Assembly: GCA_001662655.1 (NCBI GenBank)
Contig: KV460225.1
Reading direction: 5' to 3' (one strand)
From: Pseudogymnoascus verrucosus
Lineage: Eukaryota
DNA: 64,000 nucleotides
Part shown: positions 3,449 through 45,282 of the stretch, one piece after another
Layout of the letters: each line of letters begins with the position of its first letter
How positions within the stretch are numbered: the first letter of the stretch is position 1
Program-made: the position numbers and the translations under genes
The notes under the pieces: generated by a model
Database searches by the model: none
What the model saw: only the letters and a program-made list of their open reading frames with translations
What the model was told of the DNA's origin: nothing

Positions 3449-4027
3449 ATGGGCGACGACGACCTTACATTCTTTCAGACAATCCCATGGTGTGCGTCCC
3501 TCATCAACGACCCCAGCTACGTGACAATTCCTACAATCTCCCGCGTGAGCAAGGAAGACACCGAGGATGCACTCTTTGGAGACATATTAAGGACGGACAA
3601 GACAATTGCAGCATGTCTATCGTTATATAAGAAGCCAGCTGTTTCGACCGCGCCGATAGGAGAAGTCACAACTCTTCTTTCCCTTGAATACGGACTTAAC
3701 GGCTACCGGCATGTCTGTCACGGAGGAATCGTCGCCACAATACTCGACGAGGTCATGGGAATTCTGCTTGCTGTGAATAAAGACCGAGAAGCGGAAATCG
3801 CTAGAGATACCGGGAGATCAGTCGAAACGATGGCGGAGGTTACGGCAGAATTAACCGTCAAATATTTAAAGCCTGTCACAACGCCTCAGACTGTCCGTGT
3901 TAAGGCCTGGTTATCAAGGACGGAGGGACGCAAATTTTGGGTCGAGGGGACTATAGAAGATAAATCGGGTACGGTGTTAGCTAGAGGTGAAGCTTTATTT
4001 GTCCAAATAAGAAAGAGTGTACTGTAG
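3449..4027 (+). CDS. HotDog-fold (PaaI-like) thioesterase
   Basis: Motif NGY.HVCHGGIVATILDEVMG and TAELTVKYLKPV; intact 192 aa. Confidence 0.9.
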   Translation: MGDDDLTFFQTIPWCASLINDPSYVTIPTISRVSKEDTEDALFGDILRTDKTIAACLSLYKKPAVSTAPIGEVTTLLSLEYGLNGYRHVCHGGIVATILDEVMGILLAVNKDREAEIARDTGRSVETMAEVTAELTVKYLKPVTTPQTVRVKAWLSRTEGRKFWVEGTIEDKSGTVLARGEALFVQIRKSVL

Positions 4028-5144
4028 TATCTAGCTAGTATAGTATGCCCTCACAGATCATCTTCCTGCTTTCTTGTACTTGTGTAATCGTCTTATCCAA
4101 CTTCTCGCAAATAGAGCTGAACGGATTAACTTTCCGCCCAAGTGCGGATGACACCAATCCAAAGTTGCGGGGGAGTATTTACTAACCTAACTTTCTGTTT
4201 CTACCCAAGTAGAAACTTCCGGGATGGTGATGTGCCCGGCTGGAACGGCTCTTCGACGCCTCGCCCACTCCTGACATCAACCATAAGCACATTTAGTATG
4301 GACACCAGTGAATATAGGCATGGTATAGCAATATAATACTAAAAGCCTTCAACTATTACGGCATAGGCCGGACTACTCTAACTATGCCCTACCGGGGTAA
4401 TCAAGTGCGGCTCCAATCCACCAGACATCTGGCCACTGTCGAGAAAGCTGCATCTGAATTTAACAACACTAGCTGTTCCATTATTTCTTTGCTACCAAGG
4501 GGTCTAGAAGCTCGCTAAGGAAATACTATTGGCATAGTACAGGTTCGCATCAGTTAGTTACCTAAAGTCCCCAGCCTCACATATATTCTCCGTATATGGT
4601 GAGCTTGCCCTGCAGATGAAGACCAAGCTAGAGGCTCATTCCAACAGTGACCGGACCATAAGCTTATTTGGGGTTGCCACCGAAGTTTCTATGGAATCCA
4701 ACATGCCATGGCCAGAATGGAGCATGAGAATGAGCTAGGATGCGGAGGCCGAGAAAAATGATAGTGGAGATTGATGGGAGGTCTTGGTCATACCGCAGGC
4801 CGTTGCCTAATATGGACGAGATAAATATAGCTGACATGGCTCACAGCTCCTGTTCTAACAGCTCTGCCCACGCTATAACGCATGAGGCGCAATAAGTCCT
4901 ATGACTTTACGGAGATACGTATTTGGCTATGGTAGCAGCGGGATTACTCTGCTCGAGTGGTATTAGATAAATAAAAATACAACGACGTTAAAACTTGTAT
5001 AGAATGTAATACATTTTTAAGCCCAGAAGCTTTAGAAAGAAGCCCAGCCCCATGACCAATGTGACCCCAAGTTACAAACCCGTTACTAATCGATGGGCCA
5101 ACTAAACCAATACAAAAACGCACGAATAGACTTACAGCACCTAT

Positions 5145-7314
5145 TTACTCGCCCTCGGCGTCATGGCCATCCACTGCACCCTCCCTTGCCTTTCGCCACT
5201 CCCGCCGCCGCACGCCTGTCGAAGAGCCTTGATAGACCCCGAGCGGGTGCTGTGCAGCGAGTGCGCCGAAATCGGCTGCAGTTAGAGTGGGATAGTAGGC
5301 ACCGAGAGCATATACGTCCGTGTAGAGAAGTCGAGGCGGGATCTTGAAGGTGGTTGGGCCGGGTGGAGGCGTCGTAGGAGCGTCGTCCGTGCTGTGAGGG
5401 GTAGCGTTGGCAGAGGCTTTTTTAACGGGGGGAGGTGGTGTAGCTGTAGAGGCGGAAACTGCGATGAGATAGGGTTGCGAATCGCCTGTACCCTTAGCTG
5501 TAGGTGGAAGCAGGAATCTGGATACTGCGTCTGGGGTTGCCACAATGCAGAGCTGGTTTGAAACCGTCGGGGATGATGGTATGTTGGCATTGAAGTGTCT
5601 GCATCTGTTAGCCTCATCGACTCGTATAATAAAACCGCAAACATACCGTTGCACGCCCTCCAAATCGCCTTCAGCAATAAATGCTGCCTGCCCATCGACC
5701 CAGTGCAGCGTTGCTTTCTTCTTCATACCCTCTGCACCAACAACACCCTCCCAACCGAGCTCCACACCCTTCTCTACCTTTCCCAGAAACTCCGCCCACT
5801 TATCATCACTCTCCTCATACGACACCCTATACGCCACAAACCCAAACCCCTCCACCTCATCCCTCCCCAACTCCCTAACCCACCCCTCCGCCTCCAACAC
5901 CAACGGCGCCTCAAACTGCGGCTGCAAATGCTTATGCCCAAACTCCCGATGCGTGATCGTCATCGGCGCCTTCATAAAGCCCGGCACTTTCGTCTCTGCC
6001 TCATACGCCCTCTTGTGCTCCTTCACCGCCGCCTTCAAAACAGATCGCATATCAGCCACGCGTTTCCTCTCTATGCCTGCATAAATACCATTGAGCCGTT
6101 TCGGCGAGGTCTCGGGTTTGTCACCGTTAACTAGGCGTCTGTCAACGCCGTGGGCGAAAACGAAGCCGTCGGTGCGGCCGTGGATGGCGATGTCGGCGTC
6201 GATGTAAAGGTCGAGGAGGGTGTTAAGGATGAGCATGGCGTGGTGGTCGATGCGGACTGTGGTCTGTGTCTCGTTGATAGAGTGTCCCGACTGCAACACT
6301 TCCAGGAAGTGCGTCTTCCATAAAGTGTGGAGCTTTAGGAGTCGTCCAAATACCCAGGCGCGAGCTTGACTCTCCATAAACTCAAAGTGGTTACTGCATC
6401 TCCTTAGCTCTGCTCGACTTCATACATCAGCGCGGGGAACTTACTGCATATACTCCCTCCACAGCTTGCTCAAACTCCATTCCGGTCCGCTTTCCCCCTT
6501 CTCCTCACACATCGCATTAACAGCATCTTGAAATACGTCCCACTCAGCCCAAATCCGATTATACCCATCCCTCAGCCTCCCCTGCACATCCGGGCCCCTT
6601 AAATAATCAAAAACATCAACAACCTGTCTGATAATCGCAATTGCCTCCTCAATATTCTCCCTATCATCCAGGTTCCTCTCCCGCCACTCCACATCCGTCA
6701 CAGGCGCAATGCCAAACCAGACCTATATCCATCAATCAGCTCCCACCCCACCACCCACGCCACACCACCCCATTCCAAAAAAAAAACAGCAATCTCAGAA
6801 ACAACTCACCTTCGCCTTAACAACCCTAAAACTCCTCTCCACCTCCCTCCCCACCACCCCCCTCACAATATCATCCATCCCACTCATCACGTGCGCAACC
6901 CTAATCATAACCGGCGGTGACACTCCCACTCCCGGAAACCCAGGCACCAGCGCCGGCGCAGGCAGCTCCGAAAACGGTTTCGGCGCCCACTCCGCATACG
7001 GCCTTGCGAGTCTCGCGAGCTCGGGTGCTGGGAAGAGAGGGAGGGTGGAGTGGGCGCCGTGGGGGAGGCGCCCGGAGCTGGCGAAGCGGAGGAAGAGGTT
7101 GAGGGTTGGGAGCTCGAGGTCGGTTGGTATTACTGGGGGGTGTTAAAAAAAGGGGGGGGGGGGGATTGGACGTACAAACGCGGTCTTCGGCGTCTTCGGG
7201 GCTGATGACTGGGAGGGAGGGTTGGGCGGGGCCTGCCCAGAGGCCTATGAGGATGAGGGTGGAGAAGATGACGACGATGGTGGTAGCCAGGATGGCTAGT
7301 ATTTTGAGGAACAT
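5145..7314 (-). CDS. Multi-exon hypothetical protein with N-terminal hydrophobic anchor
   Basis: Collinear minus-strand ORFs (6901-7314, 6441-6701, 5145-6377) with intron-like gaps; starts MFLKILAILATTIVVIFSTLILIGLW. Exon boundaries not fully resolved. Confidence 0.6.
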
Positions 7315-7609
7315 TGTGGATTGAGGGGGGGGGTTTGAGGTTTCTCACATTTGCAAAAAATATAAATAGTTGGTGACCTTAGCGTCGTCGTTCCTTGTAA
7401 ATGAAGATCTTGGAAACAAGCGCGCGTTTTTCGACGAGTCGGCTGGGCTGCCATGATTGGTTCACGTTCCCCCTTGATAATATGGGCGAGACGACAGGCC
7501 AAGTTTAGAAAAAATGCAGATTACGGAATTACAAAAACGTAGAAAGCAAAATAAAAACTTGGAAATGTCGTTGAATTTTATAAAATTCAACAAAAAAAAT
7601 ATATATAAC

Positions 7610-7614
7610 AAAAA
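7610..7614 (-). terminator. Pol III T-run terminator of the 5S gene
   Basis: TTTTT directly follows the 5S 3' end (...GTTGTATGT); a further T8 run lies at 7592-7599. Confidence 0.75.
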
Positions 7615-7714
7615 ACATACAACAGTGGGTATTCGCTGGTGGTCACCCACCTAACTACTAATCCACCGACCTCAAGCTTGTGTATGGCAGAGCGGACGGG
7701 ATGCCCAATTCTCT
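7615..7714 (-). rRNA. 5S rRNA gene, 3' fragment (nt 20-119), interrupted by insertion
   Basis: Minus strand reads AGAGAATTGGGCATCCCGTCCGCTCTGCCATACACAAGCTTGAGGTCGGTGGATTAGTAGTTAGGTGGGTGACCACCAGCGAATACCCACTGTTGTATGT, a typical filamentous-ascomycete 5S sequence. Confidence 0.95.
7700..7714 (+). repeat. Left direct repeat GATGCCCAATTCTCT (5S nt 20-34)
   Basis: Identical to 12204-12218; the bases either side mismatch. Confidence 0.95.
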
Positions 7715-8019
7715 GTGAGCTGCCATCGCTTTTGCGCCAAGACCACCACCAAAACCGTTCCCTGTTGTCAGCCTTCCGCTCCTGACCTGACGCCATTGCT
7801 GCTTTTACCTGCACGCACTGCCTCACGACCCGCACTTCTCTAATTATAGCAGCCATTGCATCGTCCTGAGAGCGCTTACGAAATGCAAAATCGTTGGCAG
7901 CCTACAAACATTTGGCAAACACCTTCCAGCTCAACACATCTCTTAGTAAAAGGCAGCCTCCAACACCTTTTCAGTTCCGAAGAGTCGTCTACACTACTAT
8001 ATAGCGATTTAACTGCAGA

Positions 8020-9836
8020 ATGCGTCTTGTTCATACTACAACTCTCAAACTCCACGAATTCCCACCCAAAGGTATCCCACCTTACGCTATCCTTTCTCAC
8101 ACATGGGGCTGCGACGAAGTGACTTTCCAGGACATGATGAATTCTTGCCCCCCTTCTACGAAACTAGGCTATAACAAAATTATCTGTTGCTCTGAGCAAG
8201 CGAGAGGGGCTGGACTAGAATATGTATGGATCGATACTTGTTGTATTGACAAGAAGAGCAGCGTCGAGTTGTCCGAAGCGATCAACTCAATGTTTCAGTG
8301 GTATCGACAAGCGGCTGTCTGTTACGTTTACCTGAATGATATGCACATAACAACCCCGGCATTTGAAGTGTATTCACAGCTACTGGGAAGTAGGTGGTTT
8401 AAAAGGGGATGGACACTCCAGGAGCTTATTGCCTCGGATCTAAGAGTGGTCTTCAGTTCAACGTGGGTTAAGATCGGGTTATCGTCAAAAGAACGACTTG
8501 AATTACCCAAATTTCGCATAAAAGAGAGCTTTTATGCTCAAATCCCCGATATTACCCAGCACCTATGTCATATAACAGGAATTCCTATCGACATACTCCA
8601 GGGCGATAGTTTGGAACAAACTAGCATTGCCCAAAGAATGTCTTGGGCCGCATATAGGGAGACAACCAGAGTAGAGGATGAGGCTTACTGCCTTCTAGGC
8701 ATCTTCGATGTAAATATGCCGTTGCTCTACGGAGAAGGAAGGAGGGCGTTCCTAAGATTACAAGAGGAGATCCTGAAAAGTAGTGATGATCAGTCGATTC
8801 TTGCACACATATCGCCTACTCTAGAAGCTCCGGTTGGATTGCTAGCACAGTCACCCGCGTTTTTTGCGCTGGCTGGGGATATCGGAAAGTCCGATAGAAG
8901 CTGGACAACTTCGGAAGATGCTGTAGCTCTGACAAAACAAGGGCTGAAGATTTATTCAACAATTTGTCCCCTTTCTAGCGGCTCTGCGTGCCTTGCTATT
9001 CTGGACTGTACAGTTGGTAGATCATCAGTCGCGAGGCCTGCAATCTATTTAGAGCGCCAGGAAGGTTCCAAAGACTGCTACCAGCGCTATAGTCACCGAT
9101 TCTTACTAATATTATCTCCTCAACGCCCCGGGTTAGGGTGTCACATGATATGGCGACCAACGATGCTTGATATATCAATTAATGCGTTGCTTGGTAAGTT
9201 GTCTGCATTTCAAAATCATTTTTCCTTTAGTAAGACTAATGGTTATACCTAGAGCAAATAAACTTCGATCAGGCATACAAAAAGACGATACATATTCCAT
9301 TTAAGTGTGCGGATAACACTTTAATCAGATTACCAACAGTTCGTGTAGAAGAAATCGATAAACGCCTGGTACTTCTTTCTGTGGAACCGAAAAATAGTTG
9401 GGATCACGATACTAAAACGGTTCAATTGTCTTCTGGTGTTAGGACTTCTGAGGGTACCCAGGCTGTATTTCACATTCAAGACAAAGGATCTGGCCTTAAT
9501 TTAGATCTTTTGGTCGGATTCGACCCTAAAGAATTTGATGAGGAAAAATCTCGTATTTGGGCTGCATGGTGTCTCTTGATTCCATTAGGAGCTGACAGAA
9601 TTTCTCACAGACAGCCAAAATCTACAAATACGCTGTCTGAGGCACGAAAGAATAACATATGCAGTGATAGTCTTAGTCTTAGACAGACGAAGGCACAGCA
9701 GAGTGTTGTCGACTTAGGTTGCAGTTTTCAATATCTAGTCCAAGCTTCTATTGAAGCGATTAAGTTTCTTGGACGTCAAGAGGTTATTTTGCAGGTGCGG
9801 CTATTATCAAAACCCAAACCTCAAGAGACTTGTTAA
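8020..9836 (+). CDS. HET-domain (heterokaryon incompatibility) protein, ~585 aa, no NACHT/WD40
   Basis: PYAILSHTWG, YVWIDTCCIDKKSSVELSEAINSMFQWY, SRWFKRGWTLQEL and SIAQRMSWAAYRETTRVEDEAYCLLGIFDVNMPLLYGEG. Intron 9194-9252 (GTAAGT..CTAAT..TAG) joins in frame to the 9381-9836 ORF. Confidence 0.92.
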
Positions 9837-10095
9837 AGGAAGAAAGTCAGGCAAAGGCGAAATTTATATTTAAACGAAATATTAATTGATTAACAACCAA
9901 AGATAGAGTTCGATAATTAAGATTTCTACGGGCCTAGTTGATAATTATTTGTTCATTGAAATGTCTACCAATAGTGAAATCCCTGCCTTCTCGAACGTTT
10001 CGTCATTTGGATATAACGCAAAATCGTACAATGTGAAAATTGAAAGGAGAATGTTAGACTTGAAAGATTTCAATAGACAATTGTTGATACGGCCA

Positions 10096-11834
10096 TTACT
10101 CTTTGCATGTTTCGCGTGGCCTCGTCAACCCTATCTTGTGAAACTCGAATTGATGATCCACATACCCAGCTTCATCTTGAAACGCAGGTTTACCAGTACA
10201 TTCGGCTGCTTCACATACAAGGTTGCGCTTACGATGTAGTAGATCAGGGTGCCTAGCAAACAAATGAAGCATAGTTTCCATGAAATTTCCTGTTGGCTCT
10301 GAGCAATATGAACAATTTTCACCGTCTTGACTAAGAAGCCTGTAGATAATGGTGAGTTGTAATTTATACGAATGGTGAGGCATAAACGTACGTATCGTAA
10401 GGTAGTTCCCACACCGTTCCTGGCTCGAAATGGGATTTTAAAATCTCAGTCATTTTGCTACTCGACCTGTCTATATGTTAATGGCAACGAAATAGAGTCT
10501 TTTGATAATATCAAAACTTACAGCGACAATTGGCATTGTTCGTCGTCTTTCCCTTGCCAAGGCAAAAGGCATTGGCACTCGTCTAATTTAGGCATCCTTT
10601 TAGAGACTTTCTCATCTAGGTCATATATACTTCTTGCTATTGTAAACGCTGATGGGCGCAAACAAGGATCAGGTTGGACCATAGCCTGACAAGAAGGAAT
10701 GAATTGTTGGAGAAATGCTGACTGCAAGCACTCCTGATGTTCGGTGAGCTGCTCGATAGCCCTAGTGAAATTAGGGGCTTGTAGCCGTTGGGATACCCCG
10801 TTGAGACTCTGTCTGAGAGTGTCCAAAGATAAGCCCGCTGCAACTGTCATTATCTCAAGATATACACATCCGAGAGAGAATACATCTGTTTTGACACTTG
10901 AAATTTGCCCTAAAATGATTTCAGGAGCCAGGTAGATATAAGGTTTGACCTCTCCTCCATCCGAGGTTTCTTGTACTAGCATACTTGACTCTTTAAAGTA
11001 GTTTGAAATGGCGAATTCTGTGAAGAAAACATCACCATTCTTGACTCCAATACTTGCAGACCTGATATCCTTGTGTAATAGACCTTTCGCGTGGATATAG
11101 CTCAGCCCACTTGCAAGGCAGCCGAGCCATTTTTGCGCAATAGGAAGTGGCTCGAAAGGGGTCGGTTTTGTGCTATTAACTCGCTCAAGGAAGACCTGAA
11201 GTGTGCAATTTGCGATCGGGCTCATTATAATTCCATAGCGTAGGTTTTGAAGGTTAAAACTCTCCTCTTCATATGTCATAATTGCTGTTATAACATGGGG
11301 ATGATGAAGGGATTTTGCGGAATCAAGGCGCTCAAGTTCGGCAGATGATGTGCCCCTGGTTGGTTGACGGGCTAAGGTGAATACCTTTCGCGCGTAACTT
11401 CTGCCTGGAAGAATCTTTCCACCAGATGGTTCCACCTTGTCGACTATTGAGAAATTTCCCAACCCCAGATCTTCCATGTGATTAAACCGAACACGTCCAC
11501 ACGGAAAGAATTCATGAGTACAGACCACTGCTAATGTCTGATCATTGACTTTTTGGGCGTACGACTCCTCTGTATGCTGAGGGAATACAAGTTTTAGGCC
11601 GAATCTTTCCCCCTCACTTTCGTTCAGATATTGATAAGTTCGATGATCTTTAATATCGTGGGGAGCCTCTTTAGAGGTGGCTAAAGTGCTAGAGCTAGCC
11701 TGATCGTCAGACGTGATCTGCGTTGTACGTGGGCGTTTACGGGAACCCCGCTCTGGCATATCGCTCTGGTGATGCAGTTTAGGAGGTTGAGAGGACGGCT
11801 TGCAAGCGCTTGAATGTGCATTATCATGGTCCAT
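10096..11834 (-). CDS. Protein-kinase-fold protein (probable pseudokinase) with two C-terminal C2H2 zinc fingers, ~543 aa
   Basis: LGLGNFSIV, YARK, HKDIRSAS, EFA, YLAPE, DVFSLG, RPSA. Predicted exons 11834-10522, 10466-10392 and 10339-10096 (55- and 52-nt GT-AG introns) give an open frame ending in CSYC-x12-HLFARH and CEAAEC-x14-HQFEFH. Confidence 0.8.
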
Positions 11835-12203
11835 GTCTGTAGCAAAGCGGTAAATAAAGCAAATAAAGCTCGTGGTTGAGACTCGATGTTGAGGCAAGGC
11901 TTTAGGCAGCCACGGATCATGTAGTGGGCATTTAACCTTATATATCAGGCACACATTTAGATACATATCTATCCCTTTTACGCCTGCATATTGTGCTACA
12001 GTACTTGTATGTATTGCAAAGCGCAAGCTTATACATCTTCCTGTTTTGCGACAGCCGTGTACGTTTGGCCGTTTTGCGTAGTAATGTTGTTAGATAAAAG
12101 CAGCATTGGCCTTAGAACAACTCACGCGATACTGCAACTCATTATCATGTTTCCATCAACAGAAACCTCAAAGTCGTCGCATTCAGCGACCAGCGCCGAC
12201 AGA

Positions 12204-12237
12204 GATGCCCAATTCTCTTGAGTCTATGGTCATATGT
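12204..12237 (-). rRNA. 5S rRNA gene, 5' fragment (nt 1-34); includes right direct repeat 12204-12218
   Basis: Minus strand ACATATGACCATAGACTCAAGAGAATTGGGCATC. It pairs with the 3' fragment in helix I (ACAUAUGAC/GUUGUAUGU) and helix II (GACUCAAG/CUUGAGGUC, one bulge). TATA-like TATTTAG at -30 to -24. Confidence 0.92.
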
Positions 12238-12311
12238 GATTGTTATGTGCATGTCGGGAACTAAATACTAATGTTCTGTGTGTGGAAGTAGATGGTTTGA
12301 GGGCGGCGGTA

Positions 12312-12375
12312 ACATCCCCCTTAAATCGAGATAAAAAACGGCTTGTCCCCCCTCCCCTTGCTTCACCCTCGCGCG
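12312..12375 (-). repeat. Degenerate duplicate of the last 17 codons and stop of the XDH gene
   Basis: ~63-bp near-copy of 12539-12601. Confidence 0.85.
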
Positions 12376-12547
12376 TTGAATTGTATAAAATACATAACTA
12401 AAACACCACAATAGGTTAAGATTTTGCACTTAAACATACACACACATATAATTCTCACCCCCGAAACAAATCAAATCCAAAATTCATAATCCATAAAATT
12501 TTATATACAAAAAACCCCCCTCAACGATTCCACCATTTACATCCCTC

Positions 12548-15500
12548 TTAAATCGAGATAAAGAACGGCTTATCCCCCTCCCCTTGCTTGACCCTCGCGC
12601 GCTGCACAATAGGATCCACACATGCGTTCCTGATCCGCTCCGTTGTCGCGGGGCTGTCAAGGTATAACATGCCATCTTCCATCTCTGCCGATGCTTCTTG
12701 TCCTTGTGGTTGTAATGCATCGGCGGCAGGAACGTCCTCTGGGGTGGTGGTCGTCGTATCATCCGAAACGCTACTTGGCTCACTAGTCACCGGCGACTCA
12801 TCGCTCTCTCTGCTCGTGGTGTCGCCATTGCTTGCCTCACCATTCGTCGCCTCTCCATTCTCGGCATGACCGTTAGTCGCTTCACCATTCGTCGTCTCCC
12901 CAACCTCCCCATTCCCCAACCCCTTTGCCACAAACCTCCTCGCCTCAACCCCCCACTGCCTCCTCCCCGCCCGAATCGCATCCCTAATCGCAAAGAACAC
13001 CACACTGCCCAAAAACAGCGGCGGCTCCCCAACCCCCCTACTCCTCCCAATAGTCCTCAACTCCTTCCACTCCACCCCCTTCAGCAAACTAACATTAAAC
13101 GTCTGCGGCACGTCCCTAAAGCCCGGGATCTTGTAATTCCCCGGCCCGCGGGTGGCGAGCTGCCCTGCCATGGGGCCGCCGCCGAACCACAGCGACTCTT
13201 CCATCGTGAACAAGCCGACACCTTGGACGAAGGCTCCCTCAACCTGCCCGTAATCAACAGAGGGATTAATACTACGTCCAACATCCATCAGCACATCTGC
13301 ACGAATACACGTCCACGAGCCGGTAAGCGTATCGACCTCAACCTCAGCAGCAGCAACACCCTGCGTGAAGTAGAAGAACATCTTCCCCTCGTTCTTGCCC
13401 CACGTATACCCTATCTCAGGAGTACGGTAGTACCCCTGCGCGGACAGGTTGACGCGGGAGAAGTACGCGGCATGTGCGAGCTGAGCCATAGTGGCCTCGG
13501 GACCGAGCTGGGTCTTGAAAGGGGCGAGACGCTCGTTGAGCTGCGCACAGGCGTTGTAGATGGCGTAGCCGTTGAGATCGCTGGATGCGCTGGCGGCTGT
13601 GGAGGAGGTGTTGGCGACGGTGTTGGTGCCGGTTTCCGAGATATGCACGGAATCCAAGGGGACGCCGAGGGTCTCAGCAGCGACCATGCACATCTTGGTG
13701 TGCAGCCCCTGACCCATCTCAGTACCACCGTGGGCAAGCAGCACGGAACCATCGTGGTAGATGTGCACAAGCGCACCAGCCTGGTTAAGGAACAGCGCGG
13801 TGAAGGAGATACCGAACTTAGTCGGCACGATAGCAAGACCACGCTTACGCCACTTGTGAGTTTTGTTGAACTCATCGACAGCCAGACGGCGCTCCTCGTA
13901 CTTGGAGTTCTTGCGAACCTGGTCATACATAAGGGGTACATGCCAGTCCTGCAGCGCCTGGTTGAAGTGCGTGATCTCCATAGGCTTGTACATGTTGATC
14001 TCCCGCAGCCTCTCAGCTGGGATACCGAGCCTGTCTGCTGCCTCTTCAATGTACGTCTCTGCAACGAAAAGACCCTGGGGTCCACCAAAGCCACGGAAAG
14101 CGGAGTTGGACATAGTGTTAGTGCGCGCGATACGGCCACGTACGTGTACATTCGGGATGGCATAGCAACCATCAATATGGGAGAGAGCGCGTTCACAGAC
14201 AGCTCCACTGAGATCCTGCGTCCAGCCACCGTTGCAGACAACCTCCGCGTCGAGGGCCTGAAGCTTGCCATCGCTGTTGATGGCGATCTTCCACTTCGTG
14301 AGGAAGGGATGGCGCTGGCCACTGGTCATCATGTCTTCGTCGCGGTTAAGCATGCAGCGCACAGGCCGTCCCGTCTTCTTCGCAGCGAGCGCCATGATAG
14401 AACTCAGTTGCACCGAACGGGTTTCCTTGCCCCCAAAGCCGCCACCAAGACGCTTGACTCGGCAGACGACCTTGTTGTTGGCGACATTGCAGACCTGTGC
14501 GACATATGCTTGCCTGTTCTCGTTAGTACTGAGATATATCTCATAAAAATGGATTACTTACGTCTCTGTCGGGTTCTGCGTACAAGCAAAAACCTCCATC
14601 TCGCCATCTTCCGGCTTCGGTATAGCGACACAGGCATTAGTCTCAAGGTAGAAATGCTCCTGACCTCCCATCCTCGTCGTGCCAGAGATGACATGATCCG
14701 CCTCCGCAAACGCCTTCTCCGTGTCCCCAGTCTTGATGAACCTGAACTGCTCGAAGTAGCTCTCCTTCTCAATAGCCTCTTCGATAGTATAGATAGCAGG
14801 CAGCTCTTCATACTGTATCTTGACTGCCCTCGCACCAGCAGCAGCCTCGTTTGCCGTACTGGCGAGGATAACACCAATAGGCTGACCACAGGTAAAGACC
14901 TCATTTACAGCGAAGAACACCTCATCTCTCACCGGTGCACCCCACCAGTTCGCCTCGGGGCTGGGCATATCCGTATGATCCAGATAGTCCACCACACCAG
15001 GCAACTCCAAAGCCGCCGACGTATCAACAGATATGAGTTTCGCCCGCGCCTTCGTCGAAAGGACCAGACACCCGTACAACTCATTCCTCTGGACCGGGAT
15101 ATCATCAGTATACTGCGCCTGCCCCGTACACTGCTTCAGCGCAGCAACATGCGGCTGCGCGCGACCCATAATCATCTTCTCATACGCAGCCGTAGCATCG
15201 TGATCCTGCTCACCACGCGAAATCTCACGCTCAATCTCACCAACGGCCTCAAGATCCGCACCATCGTTGCCGAGCTTGATGAGCACCTCGTGGTAGAAGC
15301 GGTAGAAGAAGCTCATTGCGAGGGTCTTGCGGTAGGTCGCCATTCCACCTGGAACGCCGAACTTGAGATCAAAGTCCTGCTCGAGGGCGCCCATGACGCC
15401 TTCAAGCGTTGCCGGATCTGTCCACTTCTTGCCAATGAGGAAAGTGTCCGCCTTCTTCGCTGAGATGGTGAGAGGCGCCATTCCGCCGTAGACGAGGTTG

Positions 15501-16995
15501 GCGCTCTCAACTTCGTGGGTCTCGCTGAGTTTGACTCGGAGGGCAGCAGTGACGATAGCAATATCATCATCCTTCCTCTTCGCCTGCTTATACGCACTGG
15601 TATACTCGTTCGTCGCCGTGACAGGAATCCGAAGACTAGCGATGATCGCGCCCGCCGGGAGCGCAGTGGTACGATATGACTTGAAGAACTCCGTCATCGG
15701 GATCTCCGTATCCTCTTCTAGAGTTTTCGCAACCAAGGTAGCATTCGCAGCAACAAGCACAGGGTTCAGATCACTGATCGGACTCGCCGTCGCCAGATTA
15801 CCCGCCGGCGTCCCAACATTCCTAATCTGCCTTCCGGCGAAGAACTGCAGCTGCCTGTGCATATTCGTAAACACCTGTCCCTTCTCAGGTCCATAATGCT
15901 CAACAGCCTTCAGCGCAATGGCTTCCAGGTCCGTCAGCGTGATGTTGCCGCCAATCTCTAGATGATCGTCATGGAACTCAAACTTTCGCAGTTCCGGGAT
16001 ATCTCCAACGAACACCGAGGCCGAGTACTGCATAGCCTTGAACTTAATCTCAATCTGCGTCTCACTGCTACCTCCAATAATCTTGGCGGACGGCAGCGCA
16101 TGCTTGATGCGCAGGAGTTGGTCCACAGTGACGGGGCGGTACCAGCGCTTCCGCTTATTACCGAACGTCAACGGCTTGAACTCGTACTTGGTGAGGGCGG
16201 GCGGGAAGATGAGTTGGGTGTCGGGGTTATACTCGATGAACCCAGGCGGCGTGAAGCGCTTGATCGGCTGGTCGTCGTCGGCGGGCTTGCTCTGACAGCA
16301 TCCACCACCTCCCTCCTTCTCCATGCAGCATCCGCCACCGCCGTTGGTCTTGGCCTTTGCACATCCAGTCTCGGCGCTGAATGTACGCGCCGCTTCCAGG
16401 ATAGGCCTGTACCCCGTGCAGCGGCACAGGTTGCCGTCAAATGCTTCCTCGATGGAATGCTCAGTAGGTTGATCTTCATTCCGTAGCAGCGCATATAGAC
16501 TCATCACAATACCAGGAGTACAGAACTGTGATACCGTTAGCAACGCCCCCATATATCTCTCACACCAGGAAAGGAGAAACTTACCCCGCATTGACTCCCA
16601 TTCCCCTTCGCAATGCGCTCTTGCACAGCATGCGGCCTCTCAACATTTCCAATCCCCTCCACCGTAATAACATGCTTGCCATCCACACTCACAAGCGGCG
16701 CCAGACACGCATTAACGCTGGCATGGTATATCTTCTTCGTCGTAGGATTCCACTGACTAACAACGACAGTGCACGCGCCACATCCGCCCTCCGAACATCC
16801 CAGCTTGGTGCCGGTGAGTCCAATGCCACGGAGATACTCGAGCAGGGTGATTTCAGGGTCGATGTTGTCGAGATTGACGCGGGTGCCGTTCAGGAAGAAG
16901 CGGAGGGTTGTGTCGTAGAAAGCGGTCACGTCGGCGAGGTTTGTGGATGCCTCGGCGGGGGCGGCGGGGGTGGGAGAGACGGCACTGGGCGCCAT
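12548..16995 (-). CDS. hxA: Xanthine dehydrogenase (molybdo-flavoenzyme)
   Basis: 2Fe-2S motifs [18 protein letters not shown] and [12 protein letters not shown] domain; Moco motifs [16 protein letters not shown] and GVGEPP. Exons 16995-16585, 16525-14562 and 14513-12548. Confidence 0.96.
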
Positions 16996-17620: not shown

Positions 17621-18619
17621 TCAGTCCCCAGTCTCACGCATTTTGTTCGTAACCTTTTCCAGCACCATACGGCCGAGGCTGACGTGAGCTGTCTGTTCCC
17701 CCCAAGGGATATCTCGCTGCTCTTCATCCCTGAACGTTGTATTCGCGAACCATGCATCTCGGAGATATTCTTCCCGCTCCTGCGGATCCTTGCCGATATC
17801 TGCCACTTTCCCCGCATACTTAATAGTCATAGCGTTGAGGAGCAGACGACACACTCGGCCGTTGCCATCCTCGAAGGGATGGATACACACAAACGCCGTG
17901 GAAAGCCGGCAAGCAAAGTCGATAGCGTTGATTTCCCCGGTCTTCTCCGCTGTCTTTATTCGCTCGTTGTGTTCCCCAACGAGGTTTCTCATAAAGAGCT
18001 TCACGGATTTGCCGCGGACGAATTTCGAGGAGAAGAGCGGGACTTGCTTCCTCTGGGGGACAGGTCGGTTCGGTTTTAGCCGCTTGCAGTCTTGGACTCG
18101 TTTTTTGTATTCTTCGTCTGTTTCAAGGCGGAGTCCATGGCTTGCTCCCTCGTCCGACTCTCTGTAGGTGCCTCCTGACGCTTGGTGTTCCGAAAAGCGC
18201 ATGAGGATCCGATGTGTCTCCTTTATGATATCTTCGTCGAGAGGGACATCTTGTAGCACGATCGTGTCAAAGAGGTGCTTTGCAGCTAGTGCATGCTGGA
18301 CAATCTCGTGTCTTGAGCGCATGACAGATTGTAAGTCCGTTGCCCGACCGCTTGAAGAAAGGTGATCAAGCTCGAGTGTGTATTCGTCAGATCCCTCGTC
18401 AATGTCTTCGATGTTTGGTATCTTGCCGCTGAAAACTTGGCGACAAAACCGATCTGTAACTCCGATGGCCCCTCCTACCACCTCGATTGCATTGCTCCCA
18501 AATATTACATCGCTGAGTCTGGAGATAATAGTGTCTGACAGTTTCCTGGGTGCTGTTGGGCCGCTTTCTTGGCTCAGTTTCTGGCAGGGTCGTGTCTGCC
18601 TGTTCGCTGCCGATGCCAT
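17621..18619 (-). CDS. Fic/Doc-domain protein (putative AMPylase)
   Basis: Complete Fic motif HPFEDGNGRVCR, upstream I.E.H..LM...GG.YR segment; intronless 332 aa. Confidence 0.9.
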   Translation of the reverse strand: MASAANRQTRPCQKLSQESGPTAPRKLSDTIISRLSDVIFGSNAIEVVGGAIGVTDRFCRQVFSGKIPNIEDIDEGSDEYTLELDHLSSSGRATDLQSVMRSRHEIVQHALAAKHLFDTIVLQDVPLDEDIIKETHRILMRFSEHQASGGTYRESDEGASHGLRLETDEEYKKRVQDCKRLKPNRPVPQRKQVPLFSSKFVRGKSVKLFMRNLVGEHNERIKTAEKTGEINAIDFACRLSTAFVCIHPFEDGNGRVCRLLLNAMTIKYAGKVADIGKDPQEREEYLRDAWFANTTFRDEEQRDIPWGEQTAHVSLGRMVLEKVTNKMRETGD

Positions 18620-20866
18620 CTTTTCAGCTTTACAGTAACTGTTTATAAAACCGGGAATGTATCCTGTTGGTGTTACATGGAAAGATGGGTGACTGTAAAA
18701 CTTATAATAATCTCTGGTTATTGTGAGTTTATTGGAAGTTCAGTAAACGCTAGTAACTGTTCATTCGACAAGAAGTACGAAATAAGGTACTAATAATCCC
18801 CTGATTTTTAACTTACGATAAGCTAAATTCCATACTATAATTCATCCCATACTAAATTACACACTAAATATATAAAAATATAAAACTGGAAGGAGCGAGT
18901 TGTATATATATACTATGACCTATACTATGACCATTATGAAGCAAGGGAAGGAGCCATCCTAGAGTCAATGCACCTGCCAAGTCTCTCATCAATTACAACG
19001 CCTTGGCCAAACTTGGTCGCTAGCGTAAATGTTTTCGAGATCGATTCCCCTCCCGAGCCTACTGTCGGAGAGTAACTCTTCTCATCGCTTTGAGTCTTAC
19101 TTACCGGGAGAACTTACCGGGAGAACTTACCGGGAGATCATCGTCTGCTGGGATCATAGCATCTACACGTGATTTGTCGTATTTGAGATACTCGTATCAC
19201 GTGATTCACCGCCCCACAAATCGGGCATCCATCCCGCATCCCACACCTGTCCCACTTCCACCACCCACTTTTGTGCCCACATAACACGCCTGCGATTGTC
19301 AGCAATTCTGCCACTACGCACATGCTAAATGCAGACACACTCGTGGTCCTAGCCGTGGATGCTATCTTATCTTCACAGATAGCTAGAGAGTAGGGAAGAT
19401 AGAGTCCGTATGCGTATATACGCATGCAGTGGGTAGTATTTATATAGTATTTATTCTCTTCCGGTTAAGATGCTCCCGGATTACTCTGTAGAAATGAAGA
19501 TGAAGATATACTCTGTATATATTCTATGGTGCAATCGGCGTGAAAAAATACGATTGTGGCAAACTGAAACTGGACGCACGCGACCACTATCCACTTGCGG
19601 TGCTCGTGGGGTGCTGGTGGGGTGCTGGTTGCGCCGTAGCTAAGGTTAGGACGGTTAGTTCCGGTGAGCAAGGTAAGGTTAGTACGGGTAAGTAAAGTCT
19701 TCCATGTATAGTAGTATAGTAGTGAAAAGCCGATGTGAAAAGCCAATGTTTTGTTGGAACTACTGTAAACTATAGTAGTATGCTGTAGTATGTTGTAGTA
19801 TGGTTATAGTACGGAGTAGTTGACTATAGTAGCATAGCAGTTACGCACAGGGCGCGCGTTTATCTGCCCACGTTGTTGCATACGGCACTCTCGTAGGGCA
19901 ATAGATCGGCCTCGGCCACAGACTGCATGTCAGTCCTGCCTTACAATGGTACTAGTAGCGAGTCTAGCAGGGAATCTAGTAGGGAATCTAGTAGGGAATC
20001 TAGTAGATTCAGTCTAGTAGTGAGTCTAGTAGTACGCTACAGCAGTGACGCCTTACTTATGTGGAGTTATGGAGACAACAGGCAGGAACAGGGAGGGAAA
20101 ACGGGAGACAATATGGAGACGGTTTACGAGTCCGACGCTACGCTACTGCCATACTCTACTACGGAGTACACTCTGTCTCCCCGACTCTATGTTACCTCCA
20201 TACTCTACTCTACCGATAAGCGGAGGAGGCAGAATGGTTATGCGGGCGGGTGATGGCGATAGTGGCCCGTCCTCCGCCGGAAGAATATGGTGGGCGCCGA
20301 CGGCCAAAAAACGTGACAGGCCGTGCACGTGAATTTACCCAGGGTGTATTTCGTCTTGTGTCGTCATCATGATTCTACAGCACGCTACACCACAGCACAG
20401 CCACCAATATAAACAAATCCGGTCTCTCTACAGTACCTATAGCATCTAAAACACACACATAAAATTAAATCCAGCTATCCAACTACTACCTACCCCTCCT
20501 TGCAAAGCCGAAAATGAAAACATAAAAAACTAAAATCCGATATTGTTCGTTGGGTTGGTTCCTTATCGTCCAACAGCCACGCCGAGATTCTCCCACCCCA
20601 CTACCCAAAACATCTTAGCCTTGTTTGGCGTAGATTAGCCGATCAAGGGTCAAGGGCGCAAGGATCAACTAACAAGGGTCTCCACCCCCAGCCGCCGACG
20701 CAAGTCCTCCACCCGCAGTATCTCTCCCCGACGCCGGCAAACTCCCAATCGAATAACTTCAGCATCCTCTATTTCTCTCTCCTTTTACCTTCTTCTTCCT
20801 CCTCCGTCCTAATTTTACTGCTCGACCACCACCACAACCACTGCTGCTTCTACTACAGCTGCATCA

Positions 20867-37788: not shown

Positions 37789-38802
37789 GCACCTCGAACA
37801 ATCTTTGGGGCCGTATAGACTGTTCCAAGGTTCCGCGGATTCCCGGCCACAGCCTGTTATAGTTGCCAAACTAGGAATTATACATGTCCTTCAAAAGTAC
37901 TGTGTAGTTTCGCCGAGTAGGAAAAGGCTTATTTATTCGGACACCCCGATGATATTTATGAGTCAGATTATCAACTCGGGGTTATCATCCCCGAAAATAT
38001 CGTCATCCGCTCGGTGTAGCTTGCTGAGCCACCGACCGACCTGTCCCTTATGAAATCAGCATGTTGCTCTTAACCAGTAGAGGGTGATTACTTGCAAGAG
38101 ACCATTTGTTGCAAGTCCAGATTTCGGTTACAGAGTGAAGTGTGACCTACCAGTTAACTATTATGATCAATCTATTTTCTATACACAAAATGCTGGCATA
38201 GACTTATTCTTCGGCCAGGAATATCTGGCGTCAGTTTAGACTCGATTTCAGACAAAGAACTACAGATACTTAACACAACGGTGAAATGATGTCGTGCGAC
38301 CCCCATCTACAGCTCATGCGCCGATAAGGTATTCCACGCGAGTTGAATGCTGCCATCTTCTGACTGAGTTAAACCTAGCGTGAGTGTAACTAGCCATGCA
38401 CCATGCATTGTGACACGGAACGTTGCTCAGCTGAAGGCTCAGCTGAGTATCTATCCTAAGACACTGAGTCTATGTTTCCAGTCCGGATCTCACACGTGGG
38501 GCATAACACCGTTGGAATTCTTCAGCTCGGAAGCGACCGTAAGACATTTTTGCACCTCCTTTCGCCGTTGAACTATGTAAGATCTAGCTTGCAAATATGC
38601 ACATCGTATAAGTTACAAGCTCGAGCTCAGGTCATTGTTGAATCCATTTCAACCCAACTCGTAACCTAGTTGCCTCCCTAGCTGAGATAGTCGTCTTGTC
38701 AGAACTTTGAATTGTCTATGGTAGGACACTGCGCAGTGTCGACTGTGTGCTGTCTGTATAACTATACGGGGCTCCGCCCTCGGTGCGATCCAACGAAACG
38801 CA

Positions 38803-40350
38803 ATGTTGGACTTAGAATCCGACACCCAAGTTGATCAGACGCGTAAGCAGGTATCGTCGCGGTCAAAGCTTCGCGACAGCTGCCATGCCTGTGCCATTTC
38901 CAAGGTTAAATGTCCCAAAGAAAAACCATCATGTTCAAAATGCGAATGCCGTGGCATCACATGCCAGTACTTCTTGGCTAAACGTCCTGGTCGCAGGCGT
39001 GAGAACAACACAGTCAACGGCACAGGGAGCAACACAAGTCGATGCCAGTCCAGCAAAAGTCTTGCAACAAGCTCCAACTCCAGCTCCAGCTCCAATTCCA
39101 ACTCTAACCCCAATACCAAATCCAATACCGACAGCAGCCGGTCTATGGAGTGGGAGGCACCTCTAGATATGCAACCCACTCCCGGAACCGGCTTGCTATC
39201 AAAAGGAGGCACAATAATTCCAACCAATTCGTATGGCACCGATGGCTACCTTATGACACCTTTAAGCCTAAGCGTCCCGGCATCTCCAAGACAAGACAAT
39301 ATGTTTTCAACAAATGCAGCACAATTTTCTGTACCTGGCGAGGTCGGCATGTTCTCTGGTCTAGTAGATTTTGGATCTGAGGTCAACGACATGGATTTCA
39401 TCATGTCGGCCATGGATTCTCCGTTTGACCTGCTTGGAATGGAGTGCGGTGGCATCACTGGTAGCATCACGCAAACACCAAATGATATTGAGTCGCTCCT
39501 CATGCCAACCGAGAGAGTCGATTTTGACCATGCTTCATTGGATACGCCATCCTCACTTGATTTATTGAGCACATCGAGCGCGGCGTCATCAACCGCCTCC
39601 AATATCCATTCGCTGCCGACTGGGATGACGAGTATATCGGATATCATCGAAACCTCACCGTGTGGATGTCTGATGCAAGCACTAGATCTCTTGAAGAAGC
39701 TTTCCACTAGCTCAACCTCTTCCCGCACGGCATTTCCCAGTCTGGATGCCACGGACATGCCAAGAACTGTTAATGCTAGTTCAGCGCAGACTGTCGTCTT
39801 CGAAAATAAGCAAGGCATGGAAGCTGTCAGTAGCAAGCTTGCATGCTCGTCGTGCGTTGACGATGGCTTCTTGCTAACAGTCATCTCCATGATCGTGCTG
39901 AAAATATTAGAACGATATGCCACTGTGGCGCAGGCACAGCCGCGCAAGACTGGAAAAAGCGAGCCGGAAACTGACAATCCAGTGAGGCTATCGATCAGCA
40001 CTACTTCTGGTAGCGATGACTGGATGAGAGCGCCAAATCATGTCCTTAATGGATCGTATGACGACGGAGGAAGCGAGCGCGTGGCCGCTCAGCTTGTTCT
40101 CAGCGAGCTGCATCGCGTGCAGAGGTTAGTGAACCAGCTGTCACCGAAACTCAAAGGGCCAAAGGAGAGAGAAGGTCAAAATATAGCCCCGAAGATGAGG
40201 TACTGGGGCCGTCCTAGGGCTGCAGGAGATGGTGACAGAATGACGTTGACTTCTATCTTGGCTGGCACCTTGGACCAAATGGAGAGGGATGTTCGCAAAA
40301 GCTTGAGTACTCTGTCAGCAGAGATAATCAACGGGCTACGGCAAGTTTAA
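38803..40350 (+). CDS. AflR/MdpE-like Zn2Cys6 cluster regulator
   Basis: KLRDSCHACAISKVKCPKEKPSCSKCECRGITCQY; AflR-type C-terminus AAQLVLSELHRVQRLV. Confidence 0.9.
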   Translation: MLDLESDTQVDQTRKQVSSRSKLRDSCHACAISKVKCPKEKPSCSKCECRGITCQYFLAKRPGRRRENNTVNGTGSNTSRCQSSKSLATSSNSSSSSNSNSNPNTKSNTDSSRSMEWEAPLDMQPTPGTGLLSKGGTIIPTNSYGTDGYLMTPLSLSVPASPRQDNMFSTNAAQFSVPGEVGMFSGLVDFGSEVNDMDFIMSAMDSPFDLLGMECGGITGSITQTPNDIESLLMPTERVDFDHASLDTPSSLDLLSTSSAASSTASNIHSLPTGMTSISDIIETSPCGCLMQALDLLKKLSTSSTSSRTAFPSLDATDMPRTVNASSAQTVVFENKQGMEAVSSKLACSSCVDDGFLLTVISMIVLKILERYATVAQAQPRKTGKSEPETDNPVRLSISTTSGSDDWMRAPNHVLNGSYDDGGSERVAAQLVLSELHRVQRLVNQLSPKLKGPKEREGQNIAPKMRYWGRPRAAGDGDRMTLTSILAGTLDQMERDVRKSLSTLSAEIINGLRQV

Positions 40351-41822
40351 ATTAGTACGTGCCGGACATATGATGGTTATTTGGATTGAAACCCCGTACA
40401 TTCTCCACCTAAGGGGTGAGTCAATAGACAGACTCAAGGTGGAGCTACAGAAACGGGCATAGTATATAGCTTAATAGACATTTGGCATTATAATTCTAAA
40501 CTATAGGTCTACAGCCAAAACTCCCCTATACGCATTCTATCTATCAATATGCTATTCCAAGTTATTATACCCGCCAAACAAATTATATGCCTGAAGTTCA
40601 CGTGGACGTAAGCACGACATACTTCACAGGCATATGATTCCATTTAAGAGGATATGCTCATAATGTGGCTTGGTGGCTTGGCGGGAACTGCCATGGCTCC
40701 AACCCGACCTTCTATAAAATGGAGTGCCATACGAGCATGGCAATCTTACCGCTGGTCACAAGAAACGGGCCAGTAGTAAGTGGTCAGGTGGCTATGTGCT
40801 ATCTGTATTGAGTCTTGACAAGGTAGCATCAGCCAAATGCTTCTGCCATGCCATCGTCGGCGATCACTTCTACATCCGGGATACGACTGTTGAATACGCT
40901 ATATTTGTGGAGCTATACGAGGCGATGGATGAGGTGGGTAAGACACAGTGTTCTAGTTCGTTGGTGGATATTTATTATTCTAGAACGGCCTTCCTTATCA
41001 GTGTACCATTTTAAAGGAGGGTGTCACAGCAGTTGCTGAAATTCAATCGCTGTTGTACAACAGTGGCAAACTTTCGGTATTCAGAGGCACACTCGCACCT
41101 GCTTACGTAGATTACGTGTCTCGTAACAAACTTCCCAGGGATTTTCTTATTTAAAGATAATAAGTATAATTCAATTTGATTCTCACGGTTGAAATCAGCG
41201 TGCTCGGCGCTAATTAGGACATCTAGCAACCCCTTGAAGCTGACGACTACCTCACCGACCCTGACGAATTCCCCAACCCAGCATATCGTCATCCTAGCCC
41301 AAATTAACACAATCCATTCGGACCATCGGAAAACAGATAACTAACATGCTTCAACTCGTGTCAGCAAAATTCTTGCCCCCACCGACTAAATGTTCCTTGT
41401 ACCACGGGCCATGTTTCATACGGTTGAAATCTTCAATACTTTGGAATGCCGCCTAGCTGAAATAGTCAAAGTCTGCAGTATCGGCCATCTGATGATCAAA
41501 TAGTTGGTTCATCAAATTACGAGTGTTGCTTTAATTACCAATCTAAATACTATACTAACTAAAAGGCAAGAGTAGGTGTGCTACTTGGGAAGAAAACAAT
41601 GAGTGGTTGCATGCTAGGAAAAACTCGCTGAACTGGGTCTAAGTCTTTACACCATACTTTACCATAAAGCCCCGAAGGGCAATTAGCACCCAAGCCGCAT
41701 GTAATACGTCAGGAGCCCAGAAGCATTATATGTTAACAATTTTGAACTTACGATATATATGGCGTCAATTCGCGGTAGAAGAAAAGTTCTCGGCTGGTGT
41801 TTTAAACCTCCAATAAAACACC

Positions 41823-42390
41823 ATGCGCACCTAACTTGATACTAAACCATTACCAGTAAGGGTCGACGTGCCAGCCATAGCTGTTATTTTGGGGTCCTTT
41901 CTATCAGGTTATGTCAATCTCCTCTATACGCAATCTGGACCTTGTCTAACTATTAGACTCAGGCGCTATGACGAGCCTTTCGGCATTTGCCGTCCCTGTA
42001 TTTATAGATACTAACACCGAATAATTGCTCCGGCAATGGATTCAGCCCTACCGTTACGGCCACATGTACATACCCACATTTCGTATTGTGACGTTGGGGC
42101 TATGCGTATGCATCCTTAAGCGGAAGAGGCTCGAGCCACAAGCAATGGTACCAATATGGCGTGGCAGCCACATTGTCAATTTCTATGGTGCCATTCACCT
42201 AGCTTGCCGTGGCGGAAACGAATCATACCTTATTCCAGATGGGGTCGAGAAATTTGGCGACAGAGCTAACCTTTGCGAAAGCTCTAGTTTTGAAGTGAGC
42301 GTGGTTGCATGTTATGCAGTCTCTGTTTCCCATATTCGGAGCAATCACAGGCTTCGTCAGCCTTCTGCAGGAAATACGGTAGCAACGTGA
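41823..42390 (+). pseudogene. Anthrone oxygenase (DUF1772, EncC/MdpH-type) pseudogene
   Basis: AVILGSFLSG|AMTSLSAFAVPVFIDT..LLRQW...Y.YGH...MVPFT*L remains recognisable. It has a TAA at 42022, a TAG where W is expected (~42200) and a frameshift near 42100. Confidence 0.75.
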
Positions 42391-44721: not shown

Positions 44722-45282
44722 TTTCGGGCTATTTGAGTGCATAGTTACTTAGATGGGCATAAAATGACATGGAGCACAGGGAACCGCAGTGGTAGCTTAT
44801 TAAGATTCGTTTTAATTCAAGTGACAATTAATCCAATATGAGAACTACATGCACCTCTAGATCTAACCTGTAGTGCGGGCGGCTGTTATCTTTGAAAACT
44901 ATGCAAATCATCGTAATAATAGAGTAGTTCACTAGGCTAGTTCCCAAGTCCACATTTAACTTAGTTCATCTTAACTAGAAAATAAAAATGGACCGCAAGC
45001 AGTTGTTGCCATTGGTCCACAAACCACTCGAGTGAGTAATCCGCGAGGTGCGCGTTCTCCCCGAAGGCAACGTCCCATTGTCCCATTGTTCCATTGTTCC
45101 GAACTTGCTATAGTTTAGAACCTACTATGGGTTGGTAGGGGCTACGTATTGTGCGAGTGATAATGTGAAGTTAAGTAAAGAGGCTCCATTTAACTCTATT
45201 GCTTCTCGTAATATTATTTTCTATCGATTCTGCCATGCTATAAATTATCATATGAGTGCTTTAGAATATTGATTTCCATGAT

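Follow-up and report, generated by a model that had tools for sequence, protein, structure and literature searches.

Starships are defined by a captain, a DUF3435 tyrosine recombinase located at one end, and by their giant size. Voyager invariably enters 5S rDNA at a distance of 20 bp from its 5′ end (10.1101/2021.12.13.472469), and 5S rDNA accounts for 23% of the curated Starship sites, the families that target it having the longest direct repeats (6–16 bp) (PMC11162782). The smallest catalogued Starship measures 15,020 bp (PMC11162782); in A. oryzae, Starship elements are reported from 6.3 kb up, with HET, DNA-binding, and kinase genes as common cargo (PMC13562431). Degraded, captain-less Starship regions have also been documented (10.1101/2021.12.13.472469). 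The present analysis concerns a window of 64,000 nt (the whole stretch of DNA analyzed) from contig KV460225.1 of Pseudogymnoascus verrucosus (GenBank assembly GCA_001662655.1), in which a 5S rRNA gene is split by a 4,489-bp insert carrying two convergent genes, one for a HET protein and one for a kinase-fold protein with a zinc-finger tail. We tentatively regard this insert as a captain-less, 5S-targeted Starship-type mini-element whose only two genes would form a split death module of a zinc-finger pseudokinase and a HET protein; this is our best explanation, at somewhat less than an even chance of being right.

The insert occupies positions 7715–12203 and is bordered by an exact 15-nt direct repeat (7700–7714 and 12204–12218), which was the sole pair of 100% identity reported within 5000–15000. 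The repeat corresponds to nt 20–34 of the 5S rRNA gene, and the gene is thus interrupted at this point. Rfam model RF00001 matched 7614–7733 on the minus strand (38 bits; E value, 2.8e-5) with a badly fitting 5′ end, the initial ~19 positions being forced onto non-5S sequence. When the two halves were rejoined in silico, they gave a 5S gene of 120 nt in which nine of nine helix I pairs formed and the three-way junction was present. The true 5′ end of the gene is at 12204–12237. Strain comparisons were made with contigs from four of 11 listed runs (X2, X3, X10, and X11). In all four, the summed contig depth of the 5S parts was tens to >100 times the genome level, and the remaining 5S copies passed from 7714 directly into the sequence that follows 12218, as read from loose ends. 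The features of the locus are as follows.

7614..7714, minus strand: 3′ part of the 5S rRNA gene (about nt 20–120), from RF00001, rejoining, and contig depth
7700..7714, no strand: left 15-nt direct repeat (5S nt 20–34), an exact 15-mer
7715..7779, no strand: left terminal segment of the insert, which recurs beside 5S in run X10, where cargo cover was not seen
8020..9193, plus strand: HET exon 1, with the HET domain (about aa 1–260) and a beta-rich middle domain, from Pfam HET and the database protein
9194..9252, plus strand: HET intron of 59 nt, GTAAGT...TAG, whose splicing yields the database protein
9253..9836, plus strand: HET exon 2, the fast-diverging C-terminal region with the stop, without a Pfam family
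9837..10095, no strand: AT-rich spacer of 259 nt between the convergent stops (GC 0.33), from the gene coordinates
10096..10339, minus strand: kinase exon 3, with two C2H2-type zinc fingers and the stop, from patterns and homologous tails
10340..10391, minus strand: kinase intron 2 of 52 nt, GTACGT...CAG, from splicing
10392..10457, minus strand: kinase exon 2, a linker with a conserved PG..(W/Y)(E/Q)(L/I)P stretch, from colinear alignment of homologues
10458..10521, minus strand: kinase intron 1 of 64 nt, GTAAGT...TAG, from splicing; unspliced read-through meets an immediate stop
10522..11834, minus strand: kinase exon 1, with a basic N-terminal stretch, a degenerate kinase fold, and a conserved Cys/PW motif, from Pfam and the family alignment
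12014..12203, no strand: right terminal segment of the insert, which recurs in contigs of other strains
12204..12218, no strand: right 15-nt direct repeat, an exact 15-mer
12204..12237, minus strand: 5′ part (nt 1–34) of the split 5S rRNA gene, from other 5S copies and helix I pairing with ~7615

The two genes, including their introns, make up 79% of the insert, leaving 933 nt outside them. The gene-bearing block differs in composition from its surroundings, with a GC content of 0.40–0.46 versus 0.51–0.58 outside and a third-position GC content of 0.32–0.45 in both cargo genes versus 0.61–0.67 in the flanking genes. Repeat-induced point mutation was considered as the origin of the low GC content and rejected, as the indices were not of that type.

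An empty counterpart of the insertion site was found in run X2. An 18.8-kb contig of this run covers 4619–7398 and 12468–16000, and 264 nt replace the intervening 5,069 nt (7399–12467); its flanks are about 90% identical to the window, with differences at 262 of 2,393 and 346 of 3,533 positions. A second X2 contig, 2,545 nt long, covers 9703–12218 with 20 differences (99.2% identity) and has its right end at the 5S repeat. Because the orthologous site is empty in X2, this right junction lies at another locus. The depth of the contig, 155 versus 127 for the genome, is genome-like and indicates a single copy. On the left, its match to the window ends at 9703, within HET exon 2, and X2 has no contig with at least 80% likeness over 8010–9613. 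Either a deletion or a divergent allele would account for the break at 9703.

In run X3, both genes lie on one 3.9-kb contig that begins in 5S and covers 7687–11558 with 167 differences and 47 gaps (about 95% identity), and the flanks are 83–90% identical to the window. The X3 flanks (4000–16000) fell into two depth classes, about 45 and about 8–13, and the element contig belonged to the low class. The sample probably contains two related genomes, with the element carried by the minor one only. The closest relatives by their flanks are X10 and X11 (95–98%). In these runs 8010–12000 is uncovered, the contigs end in the 5S repeat, and the site is unbridged, and absence is not claimed. A 10.5-kb X10 contig covers 7613–7779 and then diverges from the window, and parts of 12014–12269 occur without the cargo on nine contigs, four each from X10 and X2 and one from X11. 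The first ~65 and last ~190 nt of the insert thus recur on cargo-less contigs. One X2 contig joins 7762 to 12034, indicating that deletion derivatives of this element family exist. The HET and kinase genes travel together in two of the three genomes that hold the element. The insert is site-specific, polymorphic, and much more alike between genomes than its housekeeping flanks, which is the pattern of recently mobile or horizontally moved DNA.

Compared with the Starships that target 5S genes (the Voyager, Arwing, and Enterprise families), the insert has the same position, inside a dispersed 5S gene at ~20 nt from its 5′ end, and its 15-bp direct repeat falls within the range of 6–16 bp given for them. 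It also resembles them in being polymorphic for presence and absence and in having an identity between genomes well above that of the flanks, and its HET and kinase genes are of the cargo type described for Starships. It differs from Starships in its content of only two genes and in its size, 4.5 kb versus minima of 15,020 bp in the catalogue and 6.3 kb in A. oryzae, being about one third of the smallest catalogued Starship. No description of Starships in Pseudogymnoascus or of non-autonomous Starships was found in the literature consulted.

The original prediction described the element as holding only these two convergent genes, with open spliced frames and stop codons ~260 bp apart, and characterized them as a HET protein without a NACHT or repeat sensor and a pseudokinase-zinc-finger partner. 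This description is borne out by the analysis. The spacing is 259 nt and the coordinates are exact, both frames are open, both gene models are backed by homology, and the 4,489-bp insert, which is missing at the same site in X2, carries no genes besides these two.

The HET gene spans 8020–9836 on the plus strand, with an ATG at 8020, one intron, and a stop at 9834–9836. Its spliced product of 585 aa is identical throughout to the P. verrucosus database protein VE01_10779. Pfam analysis detected HET only (52.4 bits; cut-off, 22.5; E value, 9.2e-14) and no NACHT or repeat domain in the protein. In the homology search, all 8,000 scored candidates were HET relatives, and the SHTWG, WIDTCCID, and RGWTLQE stretches, which are conserved blocks of the domain, are among the columns found invariant or nearly so in an alignment of 44 sequences. 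The structure model had a high predicted local distance difference test score (pLDDT) for residues 1–410 and a value below 50 for residues 411–585. The best rows of the VIA-align comparison with the HET domain model were nucleoside deoxyribosyltransferase (Z 6.4) and the SARM1 TIR domain (Z 5.7), and Foldseek returned nothing from the PDB at E values of 0.001 or lower. The fold rows agree with the remote homology between HET and TIR that has been published (PMC10890737; PMC12881547).

The nearest relative of the HET protein is encoded on a 2,080-bp metagenome contig with two open reading frames (ORFs), which share 73% identity with exon 1 and 52% with exon 2, indicating that the C-terminal part evolves faster. 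The specificity domain of het-B likewise diverges faster (PMC10890737). HET exon 2 has no Pfam family, and this relative (52% identity) was the single one among proteins of 106–338 aa. A protein atlas places the C-terminal half with DUF8212-type clusters (score, 0.93; 160 shared features), which serves as a lead only. Bisporella and Cadophora are among the named hosts of its closest relatives. We infer that the HET protein would be a latent TIR-like death executor, with the fast-evolving C-terminal half as its recognition or regulation surface.

The kinase gene spans 11834–10096 on the minus strand and contains two introns, with an ATG at 11834 and a stop at 10096–10098. Its coding sequence of 1,623 nt specifies 540 aa and has a single, terminal stop. 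Exon 1 matched Pfam Pkinase (73 bits; cut-off, 31.7; E value, 3.4e-20). The tail (aa 416–540) is colinear with the C-termini of homologues from Trematosphaeria pertusa (44 of 111 residues identical) and Cladophialophora immunda (45 of 119), and the alignment runs across both splice joints, indicating that the zinc-finger exons belong to the kinase gene. The tail contains two C2H2-type patterns and is homologous to the tails of the proteins P0155 (E value, 6e-19) and P0007 (E value, 1e-16). In the kinase fold, the catalytic loop reads HKD, Ser replaces the catalytic Asn, and EFA replaces DFG. Across a nine-member family alignment, the Asp of HRD is kept in three members, the Asn of the catalytic loop in three, and the Asp of DFG in none (Glu in eight, Ser in one); the beta3 Lys and the APE motif are retained. 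Judged by the lost DFG Asp and the change of Asn to Ser, the protein is a probable pseudokinase, which may yet have an atypical activity. A basic KRPR stretch is also present, which together with the C2H2 tail hints at a nuclear role.

A profile of the kinase retrieved only generic kinases from PDB sequences (CDK2, NEK, and PknB; E values of about 1e-16), and its structure model, built from nine sequences, had a mean pLDDT of 52.9, a low confidence that made it unusable. The kinase family is small, with 27 matches in the range of 240–765 aa and about 12 close representatives, and patchy, occurring in Eurotiomycetes, Dothideomycetes, and Sordariomycetes in addition to this Leotiomycete; named hosts are C. 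immunda, Exophiala bonariae, T. pertusa, and Purpureocillium lilacinum. Identity to the kinase exon did not exceed 64% in any of these 27 matches, and the gene seems to be absent from public annotation, whereas its HET neighbor is present at 100%. Among wider relatives, 16 of 42 long proteins contain ankyrin repeats, and WD40, lectin, and P-loop architectures also occur; such architectures are typical of fungal immune-like receptors. The cluster of P0010, a kinase relative from P. lilacinum with 37% identity, was recorded on 100 contigs from several sources, and P0156, a gene model of this cluster, runs into a proline/histidine-rich repeat; the P0010 relative may be multi-copy or mobile in P. 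lilacinum. Of 13 metagenome loci with kinase relatives, L001–L004 were examined, and L005–L013 (22–31% identical) were left out. A 50-kb contig among them, L004, carries an ORF with FHA and tandem-kinase domains (L004:8321-10900; 30% identical to the kinase of the window) and, 3.4 kb away, a DDE_1 transposase fragment (L004:14311-14730).

The functional link that had been proposed between the two proteins gained indirect backing from proteins in which a kinase and HET are fused, and it was weakened by the X2 copy described above. Three relatives of the kinase clade, P0314, P0253, and P0205, carry kinase and HET in one polypeptide; they represent two of 150 database representatives and one metagenome ORF. 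P0314 is an ORF of 1,461 aa at locus L003 with a full HET domain (E value, 2.9e-29), and P0253 has a HET domain (E value, 1.8e-31) and a P-loop NTPase segment. C2H2-type fingers were also found in the fusions, as pattern matches in P0314 and P0205 and as a sub-threshold Pfam finger match in P0253. The fusions are therefore like the cassette in combining a kinase of the same clade, HET, and C2H2-type fingers, and these sequence comparisons indirectly support a functional pairing.

Among described incompatibility systems, het-B of Podospora anserina (Bh, a HET/lectin-fold protein, and Bp, a PII-like protein) and het-c/pin-c of Neurospora resemble the cassette, since in each a non-NLR HET protein is linked to a small unrelated partner. 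The death reaction of het-B arises from a non-allelic interaction between the HET protein and its partner (PMC10890737). As in het-B, the HET gene and its neighbor are close together, since only 259 nt separate them and a single contig carries both in the window as well as in X3, and the C-terminal domain of the HET protein is variable. Unlike het-B and het-c, the cassette has a zinc-finger pseudokinase in place of a PII-like or HET-C partner and lies on a mobile insert instead of a fixed polymorphic locus. In plants, pseudokinase and tandem-kinase decoys, such as ZED1/RKS1 with ZAR1, trigger immune death executors. The likeness, for which no homology is claimed, would be that of a catalytically dead kinase fold serving as bait or adaptor for a death effector; the cassette differs in that its effector is a possibly TIR-like HET protein without an NLR and that no pathogen trigger is known. 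No HET-pseudokinase pair was found in the literature consulted, and the passages on pseudokinases in PMC12881547 concern MLKL.

In the explanation that we favor, a small captain-less Starship-type element (7715–12203) would have integrated site-specifically in the 5S rRNA gene, mobilized in trans by a captain, a tyrosine recombinase, that belongs to an autonomous Starship targeting 5S genes at another place in the genome. Movement in trans by a captain encoded elsewhere is the probable route. The HET protein would act as the executor, and its C-terminal half would recognize or regulate. The zinc-finger pseudokinase, having lost phosphotransfer, would serve as its partner in the form of a scaffold, sensor, or decoy, possibly in the nucleus, and would restrain or trigger HET in trans, as a kinase domain would in cis in the fusions. 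The result would be regulated cell death under non-self or stress conditions, that is, in allorecognition or defense.

Several observations weigh against this explanation. With regard to mobility, neither the element nor the 64-kb window encodes a DUF3435 captain: DUF3435 or another recombinase was found in none of the 83 window ORFs of at least 130 aa and in none of the cargo ORFs. No terminal inverted repeats were found on aligning both insert ends in both orientations, and the only inverted pair at the ends is an imperfect, non-terminal one of 24 nt (7787–7810 and 12092–12115). No autonomous relative of the insert was seen in the data examined, which did not include the window's own genome. 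Since the insert falls short of Starships in both captain and size, we class it as Starship-like in its working and not as a member of the Starships.

With regard to the pairing, X2 holds the kinase half and no recognizable HET gene, indicating that the kinase persists without this HET allele. The comparisons of the HET model with many TIR and ThsB rows gave Z 4–5.7, and all rows stayed below Z 8, which is middling. The fusions are rare, and their kinase is distant from that of the cassette (31% identity; E value, 1e-26; family motifs shared). P0314 and P0205, the two whose sequences were examined, retain the HxD and DFG motifs, unlike the cassette, and the fingers of the fusions are N-terminal and have no detectable similarity to the kinase tail. 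The kinase hosts were absent among the 120 HET matches listed, and the hosts of HET relatives were absent among the 27 kinase matches; the named hosts thus give no sign of a deeper conserved linkage. HET is, moreover, an abundant and very promiscuous domain. The pair may be regarded as a candidate only.

In the metagenome loci L001 and L002 (43 and 36% identity), no HET gene occurs upstream of the kinase (a BTB ORF is present in L002), and the contigs end at the 3′ end of the kinase, short of the side that would be informative. The search with HET exon 2 recovered only the 2,080-bp HET contig and not the 2,442-bp contig that carries the kinase with 64% identity.

The main rival, which we consider quite possible but somewhat less likely, is that the element is mobile and its HET and pseudokinase genes are two unrelated passengers. 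As independent accessory genes, each would act with partners elsewhere or decay, and they would be adjacent only because the element is so small. HET genes, kinase genes, and genes for DNA-binding proteins all turn up often in Starships (PMC13562431), and few HET genes are incompatibility genes, with 4 het genes among the 132 HET genes of P. anserina (PMC10890737). This account also fits the kinase half without a recognizable HET gene in X2 and the absence of shared host fungi between the closest named relatives of the one gene and those of the other. It is less compatible with the joint occurrence of the pair in two of three element-bearing genomes, with the matching atypical composition of the two genes, and with the recurrence of kinase and HET with C2H2-type fingers fused in single proteins. 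In addition, an element with only two genes and both frames open suggests selection on both.

An unlikely variant of the favored explanation gives the cargo a role in the spread of the element: a minimal non-autonomous Starship, consisting of two short ends with its captain elsewhere, whose death module punishes loss of the element or fusion with a non-carrier. An addiction or allorecognition cassette of this kind would explain why the copies are 99% identical while the flanks differ by 10%.

A selfish toxin-antidote cassette (addiction or spore killer), with HET as the toxin and the pseudokinase as the antidote, appears still less probable. Nuclei or spores that lose the element would be penalized, favoring its retention or spread. 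In favor of this reading, a mobile element carries the cassette as a self-contained unit, and in the one degraded copy seen, in X2, the putative antidote is retained and the putative toxin is lost or replaced, which is the tolerated direction of decay. The Spok spore-killer genes reside in the Enterprise Starship, and their resistance function depends on a kinase-like domain. Known HET proteins, in contrast, act in allorecognition via non-allelic partners and not as constitutive toxins (PMC10890737; PMC12881547), and the depth in X2 points to one copy of the element, which gives no sign of drive. The toxin-antidote reading is one of several and not the best supported.

It is similarly improbable that the insert is the stranded remnant of a larger 5S-inserted Starship, reduced by deletion of the captain and most cargo to two genes and spread as near-identical copies through introgression or transfer of the larger parent. 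In favor of such a remnant, degraded captain-less regions are known (10.1101/2021.12.13.472469), the size minima of 15,020 bp (PMC11162782) and 6.3 kb (PMC13562431) are larger than the insert, and the join of 7762 to 12034 in X2 shows deletion derivatives. Against it, the short form has identical 5S junctions in the window and X3 and a right junction at a different locus in X2, an arrangement more readily explained if the short form itself moved than if it had arisen three times by separate decay.

The insert is a variation on known kinds and not a new category. With its 4.5 kb and no captain, but with clean 5S junctions, an empty site, and near-identical copies in diverged genomes, it departs from the definition of Starships by captain and giant size. 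If our reading is true, very small cargo units can be transported in trans by the Starship machinery, and current annotation tools, anchored on captains, would miss them. The combination of one HET protein and one pseudokinase offers a tractable system for HET activation, which is listed as unknown in reviews, and the cassette permits testing of kinase-fold decoys in fungal immunity or allorecognition, as in plants. The element also documents recent gene flow among species of Pseudogymnoascus, a genus that includes the bat white-nose pathogen.

Beyond the insert, no further copies of its termini or of 5S were found within the window. In a whole-window Rfam search at gathering thresholds, even the split 5S gene fell below the threshold. 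The tRNA scan found none, and a scan for bacterial promoters and terminators found 12 versus 9.2 expected, which is irrelevant to this locus. A perfect 22-nt palindrome is located at 7570–7591, in an A/T-rich stretch just past the 3′ end of the 5S gene. On the other side of the insert, a 67-nt stretch comprising the last codons and stop of a xanthine dehydrogenase-like gene is duplicated at 12312–12378 and 12539–12604, 227 nt downstream, with 91% identity and AT-rich sequence between. The X10 flank contig spans this duplication, indicating that it is older than the insert. A Fic/DOC ORF (17624–18739, minus strand; E value, 3.3e-13), unusual for a fungal chromosome arm, adjoins the xanthine dehydrogenase gene. 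Further along, a secondary-metabolite cluster at 38725–58000 contains an AflR-like regulator (38725–40347), a metallo-beta-lactamase-fold ORF (45286–46239), a non-reducing polyketide synthase with SAT-KS-AT-ACP architecture (47066–52689), and N-acetyltransferase, NmrA-like, and FAD-binding ORFs.

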